From IMG/VR virus record IMGVR_UViG_2740892019_000001: DNA of 6,466 bases; one strand, given 5' to 3'. A program made the translations under genes and the position numbers. Shown here piece after piece: positions 3,260 to 6,419 of the stretch. This DNA comes from a virus (taxonomy: Duplodnaviria; Heunggongvirae; Uroviricota; Caudoviricetes). The notes under the pieces were generated by a model, which was not told the origin of the DNA, searched no databases, and worked only from the letters and a program-made list of their open reading frames with translations. Position 1 is the first letter of the stretch. Each line of letters opens with the position of its first letter.

Positions 3260-4559
3260 TCTCCCGCATATTGCCAGCATGGCTTTTAATGAGCCGCTGA
3301 TGCTTGAACCCGCCTATGCGCGGGTTTTCTTTTGTGCGCTTGCAGGCCAGCTTGGGATCAGCCGCCTGACGGATGCGGTGTCCGGTGACAGCCTGACTGC
3401 CGGAGAGGCACCCGCGACGCTGGCGTTATCCGGTGATGGTGACGGACCACGACAGGCCCGCAGTTATCAGGTCATGAACGGCATCGCCGTGCTGCCGGTG
3501 TCCGGCACGCTGGTCAGCCGGACGCGGGCGCTGCAGCCGTATTCGGGGATGACCGGTTACAACGGCATTATCGCCCGTCTGCAACAGGCTGCCAGCGACC
3601 CGATGGTGGACGGCATTCTGCTGGATATGGACACGCCCGGCGGGATGGTGGCGGGAGCATTTGACTGCGCTGACATCATCGCCCGTGTGCGTGACATAAA
3701 ACCGGTATGGGCGCTGGCCAACGACATGAACTGCAGTGCAGGTCAGCTGCTTGCCAGCGCCGCCTCCCGGCGTCTGGTCACGCAGACCGCCCGGACAGGC
3801 TCCATCGGCGTCATGATGGCTCACAGTAATTACGGTGCTGCGCTGGAGAAACAGGGCGTGGAAATCACGCTGATTTACAGCGGCAGCCATAAGGTGGATG
3901 GCAACCCCTACAGCCATCTTCCGGATGACGTCCGGGAGACACTGCAATCCCGGATGGACGCAACCCGCCAGATGTTTGCGCAGAAAGTGTCGGCATATAC
4001 CGGCCTGTCTGTGCAGGCTGTGCTGGATACCGAGGCTGCAGTGTACAGCGGTCAGGAGGCCATTGATGCCGGACTGGCTGATGAACTTGTCAACAGCACC
4101 GATGCGATCACCGTTATGCGTGATGCACTGGATGCACGTAAATCCCGTCTCTCAGGAGGGCGAATGACCAAAGAGACTCAATCAACAGCTGTTTCAGCCA
4201 CTGCTTCGCAGGCTGACGTTACTGACGTGGTGCCAGCGACGGAGGGTGAAAACGCCAGCACGGCGCAGCCGGACGTGAACGCGCAGATCACTGCAGCGGT
4301 TGCGGCAGAAAACAGCCGCATTATGGGGATACTCAACTGTGAGGAGGCTCACGGACGCGAAGAACAGGCACGCGTGCTGGCAGAAACCCCCGGTATGACC
4401 GTGGAAACGGCCCGCCGCATTCTGGCTGCAGCACCACAGAGTGCACAGGCGCGCAGTGACACTGCGCTGGATCGTCTGATGCAGGGGGCACCGGCACCGC
4501 TGGCTGCAGGTAACCCGGCATCTGATGCCGTTAACGATTTGCTGAACACACCAGTGTAA
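3240..4559 (+). CDS. C: Head maturation protease / scaffold gpC (439 aa; S49 SppA-like serine peptidase family)
   Basis: GTG start at 3240, preceded by GAGGAGGAG at 3227-3235, overlapping the last 20 nt of B in a different frame. Product MTAELRNLPHIASMAFNEPLML... is recognised as lambda gpC. The ORF-track start at 3126 is an upstream in-frame extension lying inside B. Stop TAA at 4557-4559. Confidence 0.9.
3954..4559 (+). CDS. Nu3: Scaffolding protein Nu3 (201 aa), translated from an internal in-frame ATG of C and sharing the C-terminal third of gpC
   Basis: In-frame ATG at 3954 (MDATRQMFAQKVSAYTGLS...) in the same frame as C (3240 and 3954 are both 0 mod 3). This matches the nested C/Nu3 arrangement known for lambda. 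No strong SD is visible immediately upstream, so the start assignment rests on homology and recalled annotation rather than sequence signals. Confidence 0.68.
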   Translation: MDATRQMFAQKVSAYTGLSVQAVLDTEAAVYSGQEAIDAGLADELVNSTDAITVMRDALDARKSRLSGGRMTKETQSTAVSATASQADVTDVVPATEGENASTAQPDVNAQITAAVAAENSRIMGILNCEEAHGREEQARVLAETPGMTVETARRILAAAPQSAQARSDTALDRLMQGAPAPLAAGNPASDAVNDLLNTPV

Positions 4560-4568
4560 GGGATGTTT

Positions 4569-4901
4569 ATGACGAGCAAAGAAACCTTTACCCATAACCA
4601 GCCGCTGGGCAACAGTGACCCGGCTCATACCGCAACCGCGCCCGGCGGATTGAGTGCGAAAGCGCCTGCAATGACCCCGCTGATGCTGGACACCTCCACC
4701 CGTAAGCTGGTTGCGTGGGATGGCACCACCGACGGTGCTGCTGTTGGCATTCTTGCGGTTGCTGCTGACCAGACCAGCACCACGCTGACGTTCTACAAGT
4801 CCGGCACGTTCCGTTATGAGGATGTGCTCTGGCCGGAGGCTGCCAGCGACGAGACGAAAAAACGGACCGCGTTTGCCGGAACGGCAATCAGCATCGTTTA
4901 A
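4569..4901 (+). CDS. D: Head decoration protein gpD (110 aa)
   Basis: ATG at 4569 with AAGGGA SD at 4558-4563 (5-nt spacer). Product MTSKETFTH...GTAISIV is recognised as lambda gpD. The ORF-track start at 4563 (MFM...) abuts the SD and is unlikely to be used. Stop TAA at 4899-4901. Confidence 0.93.
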
Positions 4902-4918
4902 TCTTCCCCTTCATCAAC

Positions 4919-4943
4919 AAAGGCCGCCTGTGCGGCTTTTTTT
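4919..4943 (+). terminator. Candidate intrinsic-terminator-like hairpin in the D-E intergenic region
   Basis: 5-bp GC-rich stem GCCGC (4923-4927) / GCGGC (4932-4936) with loop CUGU, extendable by flanking A-U and G-U pairs (AAAG...UUUU), followed directly by a 7-nt T run (4937-4943). It lies 18 nt after the D stop and 14 nt before the E start. Confidence 0.5.
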
Positions 4944-4956
4944 ACGGGATTTTTTT

Positions 4957-5982
4957 ATGTCGATGTACACAACCGCCCAGCTGCTGGCGGCAAATGAGCA
5001 GAAATTTAAGTTTGATCCGCTGTTTCTGCGTCTCTTTTTCCGTGAAAGCTATCCCTTCACCACGGAGAAAGTCTATCTCTCACAAATTCCGGGACTGGTA
5101 AACATGGCGCTGTACGTTTCGCCGATTGTTTCCGGTGAGGTTATCCGCTCCCGTGGCGGCTCCACCTCCGAATTTACGCCGGGATATGTCAAGCCGAAGC
5201 ATGAGGTGAATCCGCAGATGACCCTGCGTCGCCTGCCGGATGAAGATCCGCAGAATCTGGCGGACCCGGCTTACCGCCGCCGTCGCATCATCATGCAGAA
5301 CATGCGTGACGAAGAGCTGGCCATTGCTCAGGTCGAAGAGATGCAGGCAGTTTCTGCCGTGCTTAAGGGCAAATACACCATGACCGGTGAAGCCTTCGAT
5401 CCGGTTGAGGTGGATATGGGCCGCAGTGCCGCGAACAACATCACACAGTCCGGTGGCACGGAGTGGAGCAAGCGTGACAAGTCCACGTATGACCCGACCG
5501 ACGATATCGAAGCCTATGCGCTGAACGCCAGCGGTGTGATTGATATCATCGTGTTTGATCCGAAAGGCTGGGCGCTGTTCCGTTCCTTCAAAGCCGTCAA
5601 GGAGAAGCTGGATACCCGTCGCGGCTCTCATTCCGAGCTGGAGACAGCGGTAAAAGACCTGGGCAAAGCGGTGTCCTATAAGGGGATGTATGGCGATGTG
5701 GCCATCGTCGTGTATTCCGGACAGTACGTGGAAAACGGCGTCAAAAAGAACTTCCTGCCGGACAACACGATGGTGCTGGGTAACACTCATGCACGCGGTC
5801 TGCGCACCTATGGCTGTATTCAGGATGCGGATGCATTGAGTGAGGGTATTAATGCGTCTCCCCGTTATCCGAAAAACTGGAAGACATCCGGAGATCCGGC
5901 GCGAGAGTTCACCATGATTCAGTCAGCACCGCTGATGCTGCTGGCTGACCCTGATGAGTTCGTGTCCGTACAACTGGCGTAA
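4957..5982 (+). CDS. E: Major capsid protein gpE (341 aa)
   Basis: ATG at 4957; product MSMYTTAQLLAANEQKFKFDPLFLRLFFRESYPFTTEKVYLSQIPGLVNMALYVSP...VSVQLA is recognised as the lambda major capsid protein. The ORF-track start at 4816 is an upstream in-frame extension running through the D 3' end and the terminator hairpin. Stop TAA at 5980-5982. Confidence 0.96.
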   Translation: MSMYTTAQLLAANEQKFKFDPLFLRLFFRESYPFTTEKVYLSQIPGLVNMALYVSPIVSGEVIRSRGGSTSEFTPGYVKPKHEVNPQMTLRRLPDEDPQNLADPAYRRRRIIMQNMRDEELAIAQVEEMQAVSAVLKGKYTMTGEAFDPVEVDMGRSAANNITQSGGTEWSKRDKSTYDPTDDIEAYALNASGVIDIIVFDPKGWALFRSFKAVKEKLDTRRGSHSELETAVKDLGKAVSYKGMYGDVAIVVYSGQYVENGVKKNFLPDNTMVLGNTHARGLRTYGCIQDADALSEGINASPRYPKNWKTSGDPAREFTMIQSAPLMLLADPDEFVSVQLA

Positions 5983-5984
5983 TC

Positions 5985-6010
5985 ATGGCCCTTCGGGGCC
6001 ATTTTCTCTC
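5985..6010 (+). terminator. Candidate stable hairpin (UUCG tetraloop) with U-rich tail in the E-FI intergenic region
   Basis: Perfect 7-bp stem ATGGCCC (5985-5991) / GGGCCAT (5996-6002) with loop TTCG (5992-5995), followed by TTTCTCTC (6003-6010). It begins 3 nt after the E stop. Confidence 0.5.
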
Positions 6011-6023
6011 TGTGGAGGAGTCC

Positions 6024-6419
6024 ATGACGAAAGATGAACTGATTGCCCGTCTCCGGTCGCTGGGTGAGCAACTGAACCGTGATGTCAGCCTGACGGGGAC
6101 GAAAGAAGAACTGGCGCTCCGTGTGGCAGAGCTGGAAGAGGAGCTTGATGACACGGATGACACTGCCGGTCAGGACACCCCTCTCAGCCCGGAAAATGTG
6201 CTGACCGGGCATGAAAATGAGGTTGTATCAGCGCAGCCGGATACCGTGACTGATACGGCTGATCTGGTCACGGTTGTGGCACTGGTGACGCTGCATACTG
6301 ATGCACTTCACGCCACGCGGGATGAGGCTGTGGCATTTGTGCTGCCGGGAACGGCGTTCCGTGTCTCTGCCGGTGTGGCAGCTGAAATGACAGAGCGCGG
6401 CCTGGCCAGAATGCAATAA
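6024..6419 (+). CDS. FI: DNA-packaging / head assembly protein gpFI (131 aa)
   Basis: ATG at 6024 with GGAGGAG SD at 6014-6020. Product MTKDELIARLRSLGEQLNRDVSLTGTKEELALRVAEL... is recognised as lambda gpFI. The ORF-track start at 5985 lies inside the intergenic hairpin stem and is rejected. Stop TAA at 6417-6419. Confidence 0.9.
   Translation: MTKDELIARLRSLGEQLNRDVSLTGTKEELALRVAELEEELDDTDDTAGQDTPLSPENVLTGHENEVVSAQPDTVTDTADLVTVVALVTLHTDALHATRDEAVAFVLPGTAFRVSAGVAAEMTERGLARMQ

Follow-up and report, generated by a model that had tools for sequence, protein, structure and literature searches.

The locus and its features

The DNA analysed here (the window, 6,466 nucleotides in its whole length) carries a lambda-type head-gene block that consists of A (3' end), W, B, C/Nu3, D, E, FI and FII (start). 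A 601-bp region that runs from the 3' end of E into FI (window positions 5700-6300) has 93.7% DNA identity to phage lambda, over the annotated genes E and Fi, and 97.7% identity to Escherichia phage 2G7b. The E-FI spacer has 41 nt and is one of two sizeable spacers in the midst of tightly packed head genes. It contains a perfect stem-loop (below, the post-E hairpin). The other sizeable spacer, between D and E, contains a companion hairpin. The coordinates of these features are listed in Table 1.

Table 1. Features around the capsid gene E and the E-FI spacer (window coordinates)
Feature	Position	Strand	Basis
Companion D-E hairpin, AAAGGCCGC-CUGU-GCGGCUUUU, followed by a run of 7 U	4919-4943	+	sequence, conservation
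E, major capsid protein gene, 341 codons and TAA (5980-5982)	4957-5982	+	translation and lambda match
Post-E stem-loop: AUGGCCC (5985-5991), UUCG loop (5992-5995), GGGCCAU (5996-6002)	5985-6002	+	sequence, folding, RNAalifold
U/C-rich tail TTTCTCTCT (RNA UUUCUCUCU; 6 of 9 are U)	6003-6011	+	sequence, terminator scan
FI translation start region: Shine-Dalgarno GGAGGAG (6014-6020), ATG (6024-6026)	6012-6026	+	
FI (DNA packaging chaperone), first gene 3' of the post-E hairpin	6024-6419	+	lambda alignment

A previous inspection of these letters (the sequence-only reading) had pointed to a perfect 7-bp stem after E, ATGGCCC-TTCG-GGGCCAT, and to a U/C-rich tail behind it; both are present at the positions given in Table 1. 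It had placed the stem 3 nt past the E stop codon. This distance has to be corrected to 2 nt, as tc are the sole two bases between the TAA and the stem. From the end of the hairpin to the start of FI there are 21 nt. Lambda (NC_001416) has the same 18-nt hairpin, identical in sequence, at 7163-7180, while the tail of lambda (TGTTTCTCT, RNA UGUUUCUCU) differs from that of the window at two bases.

The ATG at 5985 opens an ORF that is in frame with FI (5985-6419, 144 aa). This extends FI by 13 codons, lacks a Shine-Dalgarno sequence and has its start codon inside the stem, and the annotated start of lambda Fi aligns to position 6024. The extension is thus spurious, as had been proposed.

Structure, chance expectation and loop type

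The post-E hairpin has seven perfect pairs, five of which are G-C, and a loop of four. As a C-G pair closes the UUCG (5991-5996), this is a genuine cUUCGg motif of the UNCG tetraloop class. A calculation of the folding energy, which had been suggested as a check, gives -12.9 kcal/mol for the hairpin 22-mer (z = -3.45), a value equalled by none of 200 shuffles. The hairpin is retained in the minimum-energy fold of its 56-nt and 111-nt contexts, which as a whole have no exceptional stability (z = -0.70 and -0.27, respectively). It is also detected by a lenient terminator scan.

Three perfect hairpins with stems of 7 bp or more are found in the window, with 2.9 +/- 1.9 expected from dinucleotide shuffles. 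When at least five G-C pairs are required, three are seen and the shuffles have 1.6 +/- 1.5. For the 41-nt E-FI spacer, the expectation is about 0.01 GC-rich perfect hairpins. The count alone is not improbable, and the argument for the hairpin rests on its position and conservation.

An Rfam scan of the whole window with E-values up to 10 gave PhotoRC-I as the only overlap at the hairpin (14.2 bits with a gathering threshold of 45, E = 5.9). A terminator on the minus strand was considered and rejected: the reverse complement of the hairpin is followed by GATTACGCC, which lacks a T-run, and the fold of the minus strand does not reach significance (z = -1.49).

Conservation among relatives

From genomes and viral contigs, we gathered 347 E-type capsid loci, 316 of which extend to the end of the capsid gene and yield 110 distinct downstream sequences. 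A profile-based viral scan gave only near-identical lambda-like loci because its hits were ranked against the first sequence; searches with single distant capsid proteins reached the distant relatives. The minimum free energy of the 50 nt past the stop codon, compared to other windows of the same locus, does not discriminate (median rank about 0.1), as coding windows rich in GC fold about equally well. For this reason, we used a test for compact hairpins (at least six pairs, at least four of them G-C, a loop of 3-6 and a start at most 45 nt past the capsid stop).

A compact GC hairpin follows the capsid stop in 99 of the 110 distinct sequences, when about 19 are expected from the density of compact hairpins elsewhere in the same loci; as the 110 sequences are phylogenetically related, this ratio is not a probability. 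Lineages whose capsid proteins share as little as about 40% identity still have such a hairpin, with a stem of unrelated sequence. Apart from the lambda/N15 type, we count at least a dozen unrelated stems, which belong to lineages that range from 70% to about 40% in capsid identity (among them GAGGCGCGC...GCGCGCCU, GGCCCGGC...GCCGGGCC, CGCCGGGG...CCCCGGCG and AAAAAGGGGCGC...GCGCCCCUUUUU).

The 33 distinct variants of the enteric group all share the five inner G-C pairs, while the flanks, the loop and the distance from stop codon to stem (2-10 nt) all vary. The outer two pairs covary, one as A-U, G-U, G-C or U-A, the other as U-A, C-G or U-G. In the alignment of this group, 94.8% of the cells are paired, compared to 21-58% when the partner is slid, and the covariation score was matched by none of 500 shuffles. 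When the Pseudomonas-type group is taken alone, there is one compensatory pair among nine sequences, which is not significant (49 of 500 shuffles). RNAalifold was applied to 20 diverse full spacers and returned the post-E hairpin as the only consensus structure. The sequence-only reading had stated that a stem without conservation or covariation would speak against a function; the stem is conserved, and its variable outer pairs are compensatory. On this comparative evidence, the post-E hairpin qualifies as a real, selected feature at the RNA level.

The sequence that follows the stem differs between lineages. Enteric and other moderate-GC lineages have a U-rich stretch there (enteric ones nearly always). 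The high-GC Pseudomonas-type lineages lack a U-tract, and the Shine-Dalgarno sequence of the next gene directly adjoins the 3' arm.

The UUCG loop had been given emphasis in the sequence-only reading, and this has to be qualified. UNCG loops dominate among the enteric variants (23 of 33, namely UUCG in 15, UGCG in 6 and UCCG in 2), with UUCG being the commonest. However, the N15/HK225 clade has AUUC, UGUC, UGUU or UUUC, and in several near-identical lambda variants, an unbroken stem is capped by UUAG, UUCU or UUCA. Loops of the stable classes (UNCG or GNRA) are also found on unrelated stems (UUCG in L242, UGCG in L318, GCAA in L042), so that UNCG arises independently in L242 and L318. A stable tetraloop is favoured but not required, and it is the stem that is the selected feature. 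Compared to other hairpins of the cUUCGg/UNCG class, the tetraloop is here a stabilising option rather than the functional determinant.

The post-E motif, searched as GGCCC-N4-GGGCC with at most one mismatch, has a single occurrence each in the window and in lambda positions 1-23000. Because it is unique in both, a REP or another repeated extragenic palindrome is ruled out.

Some of the records are doubtful with respect to their origin. Lambda-like capsid genes (about 97% identical) are found on short low-coverage contigs attributed to Chromatium, Kitasatospora, Bradyrhizobium, Akkermansia, Enterococcus and others (loci L007-L023 and L038-L076). The record of "Campylobacter phage CJLB-4" has 93.7% identity to the 601-bp E-FI query, the same value as the lambda records. 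These look like contamination with lambda control DNA and not like real hosts.

The D-E hairpin and other hairpins of the late operon

The D-E spacer (4902-4956) has the canonical shape of an intrinsic terminator with a U7 run, and a second U7 is located directly 5' of the E ATG. A GCCGC-N4-GCGGC core with a U-run precedes the capsid gene in nearly all lineages sampled, including the Pseudomonas-type ones, down to about 40% capsid identity. Its loop sequences are freely variable, and the stem shows some compensatory changes, such as GCCAC/GUGGC in L042. As judged from the sequences compared, the D-E hairpin is more strongly conserved than the post-E hairpin. Two sub-threshold Rfam hits at 4848-4991 (Leu_leader and isrK) probably just reflect the D-E terminator.

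Spacers of at least 40 nt occur at six junctions of the lambda late operon (D-E, E-FI, L-K, I-J, J-lom and lom-stf), and each of them contains a stable hairpin. The remaining late gene junctions overlap or have at most 15 nt. Both of the head-region spacers of this size flank E. In lambda (positions 1-23000), the I-J (GUGAAACCGCC-UGCG-GGCGGUUUUGU), J-lom and lom-stf spacers are terminator-shaped.

Two further hairpins of the window are located within coding regions. A terminator-like one at 3306-3327 (GAACCCGC-CTATGC-GCGGGTTT, followed by TCTTTTGTG; lambda 4484-4505) is found about 47 nt past the stop codon of the portal gene B, within the coding region of C. A perfect 7-bp one at 4451-4467 (GCGCAGT-GAC-ACTGCGC; lambda 5629-5645) is located in C/Nu3 and has no T-rich tail.

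Prior annotation and known counterparts

The post-E hairpin is already known, since the lambda reference contains it and records of related phages list it as a putative terminator; it is an element of a familiar kind. The record of phage N15 annotates the orthologous hairpin at 7053-7073 as a "putative rho-indep. transcription terminator", and the record of HK225 annotates it at 7009-7028 as a "rho-independent terminator". In both phages, it has the same place, between the capsid gene and an FI homologue, and the same GGCCC/GGGCC core as in the window. They differ from the window in that the first pair is G-C, the loops are not of the UNCG class, 9 nt separate the stop codon from the stem, and the stem is followed by no more than three U. 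No feature is given for the E-FI hairpin in the lambda records. In the record of phage 434, a rho-independent terminator is assigned to the D-E hairpin but none to the E-FI hairpin. A search of the literature for experiments, mutant phenotypes, transcript ends or half-lives concerning the lambda E-FI hairpin returned none.

Hairpins near capsid genes have been described or predicted in other phages. The P22-like phage L has an intra-operon terminator after the procapsid module, and the authors state that the roles of such elements are not known (PMC8022706). In SPP1, a terminator is predicted directly 3' of the capsid gene (gene 13). Phage phiX174 has leaky terminators (T_J, T_F and T_G), and read-through at these generates a range of mRNAs. 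Among these three phages, terminator efficiencies have been measured only for phiX174. Their capsid genes and hairpin sequences are unrelated to those of the window, and SPP1 and phiX174 operate without Q-type antitermination, unlike the lambda late operon.

Further parallels come from Escherichia coli. In malE-malF and menBCE, conserved intercistronic hairpins shield the upstream segment from PNPase and RNase II after a downstream cut by RNase E, and in papBA the mRNA of the major pilus subunit is shielded at its 5' end by a hairpin and at its 3' end by a terminator hairpin (PMC5927463). These are likewise stable and conserved intercistronic hairpins 3' of the product that is needed more abundantly. 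The menBCE operon has two consecutive protective hairpins, as has the window after D and after E. E is the head protein that is needed most, and its gene is bracketed by hairpins, just as papA, a gene for a major structural subunit, is flanked by them. The mechanism is established in these E. coli operons. Unlike its E. coli counterparts, the post-E hairpin is located in a phage operon that is read by an antiterminated polymerase.

Possible functions of the post-E hairpin

One explanation is that the hairpin has no RNA function at all, being either a chance palindrome that is inherited together with E or a linker at a module boundary which favours recombination of mosaic phages at the DNA level. 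As described above, the window has no more perfect 7-bp hairpins than expected by chance. The ten inner stem bases are invariant in the enteric group, which alone is uninformative on pairing, and the lambda-type and N15-type FI genes diverge from each other at the boundary on which the spacer is located. Against this, the stem at this place differs in sequence between distant lineages, which can be explained neither by descent of a common palindrome nor by a sequence-specific linker. In addition, the outer pairs change in a compensatory manner, and the motif, of which the window and 23 kb of lambda have a single copy each, is not a repeated element. This explanation is already disfavoured, and we consider it very improbable.

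A second explanation, in line with the annotations in N15 and HK225, is that the hairpin is primarily a weak or conditional intrinsic terminator. It might stop part of the late transcription, thereby cutting the gene dose of FI and the tail genes, or it might be a fail-safe within the late operon against polymerases that initiate without Q, in spurious transcription within a lysogen. The GC-rich stem with a U-rich tail has the corresponding shape, and the stem-loop falls within the range of intrinsic terminators (G+C-rich, about 5-14 pairs, loop of 3-8), consistent with its detection by the terminator scan. Textbook terminators are found at the same position in the distant relatives L060, L042, L242, L069 and L337. 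The authors of the phage L study offer the same ideas for the terminator after the procapsid module (PMC8022706), and the predicted terminator of SPP1 and the leaky ones of phiX174 fit as well. However, the U-tract is poor, with three U followed by alternating C and U in the window (UUUCUCUCU) and UGUUUCUCU in lambda, and the annotators of phage 434 selected the D-E terminator, not the E-FI hairpin. An intrinsic terminator is expected at the end of a transcription unit, whereas FI to J follow on the same strand without sizeable gaps. The late genes of lambda, FI to J included, are expressed as a single Q-dependent transcript. According to PMC9388147, the RNA exit channel of the Q-loaded polymerase is narrowed and extended, so that terminator hairpins cannot form. 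With a single late transcript read by such a polymerase, any effect of the hairpin during lytic growth must be post-transcriptional or weak. One cited study suggests that it is unusually long stems which enable a terminator to resist processive antitermination, while the stem has only 7 bp here. The high-GC lineages retain the hairpin without any U-tract and with its 3' arm abutting the Shine-Dalgarno sequence; thus, it cannot be a canonical terminator there. There is also no obvious reason why a fail-safe terminator should be kept exactly at the end of the capsid gene in so many lineages. Terminator activity in real late transcription is doubtful, and termination as the primary function seems somewhat unlikely to us.

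A translational role at the start of FI is the remaining alternative. The hairpin may prevent base pairing between the E coding sequence and the ribosome-binding site of FI, and it may make initiation at FI independent of ribosomes that terminate at E. In N15-type phages, a larger fold may hide the Shine-Dalgarno sequence of the next gene until it is opened by the ribosome that terminates at the capsid gene. In most cases, about 10-23 nt lie between the end of the hairpin, just 5' of the Shine-Dalgarno sequence, and the next start codon, and in Pseudomonas-type loci its 3' arm runs into CAGGAG. In N15-type spacers, a CUUCC or UUUCC just past the stop codon is predicted to pair with the UGGAG or CGGAG of the Shine-Dalgarno sequence around the inner hairpin. 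Dar and Sorek noted that protective structures may also reduce initiation on the flanking gene (PMC5927463). In the window and in lambda, however, an unpaired U/C tract separates the hairpin from the Shine-Dalgarno sequence and no outer helix is predicted. The RNAalifold consensus consists of the inner hairpin only, and a local hairpin over the FI start is not significant. On balance, a role in FI translation is quite improbable as the explanation for the hairpin.

Some structures around the FI start deserve a separate comment. The outer helix is predicted in N15 (L001, positions 884-925), HK225 (L002) and L024 with its relatives; it is absent in the window and in lambda. It cannot show two-sided covariation because one of its sides is the constrained Shine-Dalgarno sequence. 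This predicted helix could be a device for translational coupling. In the window, a weak hairpin (GUGGA-GGAG-UCCAU, 6012-6025) is predicted, which has part of the FI Shine-Dalgarno sequence in its loop and the AU of the start codon in its stem; it is not significant compared to shuffles (-9.6 kcal/mol, z = -0.73). The tail at 6003-6011 could be a weak terminator U-tract, an unstructured spacer 5' of the FI ribosome site, or both.

A proposed barrier to mRNA decay

We tentatively favour the interpretation that the post-E hairpin is a 3' decay barrier which keeps the capsid mRNA above the level of the downstream message and is at most a weak or conditional terminator (probability about 0.4). Q antitermination, together with the presence of essential genes downstream, makes this the best reading in our view. 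Two properties are expected of a protective stem-loop, a stable structure immediately 3' of the gene and its conservation in relatives; the post-E hairpin begins 2 nt past the E stop codon and is conserved. Its structure, position, conservation and covariation are observations, and from these we infer each of the functional steps described below.

The intercistronic stem-loop forms in the long late transcript, just 3' of the capsid cistron, and will be there in the finished RNA; it would act mainly after transcription, by blocking 3'-to-5' exonucleases. RNase E would cut the poorly protected message downstream of the hairpin; the RNase E motif is too degenerate for a motif search around the hairpin to be of use. 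PNPase and RNase II would then digest backwards and stall at the hairpin, so that the heavily translated E message may outlast the message that covers FI to the tail genes. With one promoter, this would help to supply the approximately 400 capsid subunits that go into each virion. The D-E spacer hairpin may have the same role for D and may, in addition, provide the processed E mRNA with a structured 5' end, similar to papBA. The weak intrinsic terminator shape may serve to stop polymerases without Q modification and must be read through in genuine late transcription.

Several points weigh against the hairpin being a pure stabiliser. The U-rich tail persists in enteric lineages and is not needed by a pure exonuclease barrier, so that a terminator or translational role may be selected as well; this tail is the strongest argument for such an additional role. 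The D-E hairpin keeps its U-run even in high-GC lineages and is thus more terminator-like. A 7-bp stem is a modest barrier to exonucleases and, with the stem only 2 nt past the stop codon, terminating ribosomes must melt the hairpin repeatedly. Sampson et al. 1988 (PNAS) reportedly attributed most of the differences in the yield of lambda late proteins to translation initiation. If this attribution is right, the contribution of mRNA stability may be small.

Implications for the lambda-type late operon

It is tempting to speculate that the capsid gene is a bracketed cassette throughout the family. RNase E processing between the hairpins would release a long-lived, hairpin-capped monocistronic mRNA, as for papA, and no termination under Q would be involved. 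In this extended form, we consider the proposal unlikely. If true, mRNA processing would be a conserved determinant of capsid protein dosage besides translation initiation. The post-E hairpin would be one of the cis elements by which protein doses become very unequal although they all derive from a single 22-kb transcript, the capsid subunits being made in hundreds and the assembly factors in only small amounts. For those who engineer lambda (display vectors, capsid fusions, refactored genomes), the E-FI hairpin is an element that should not be deleted casually.
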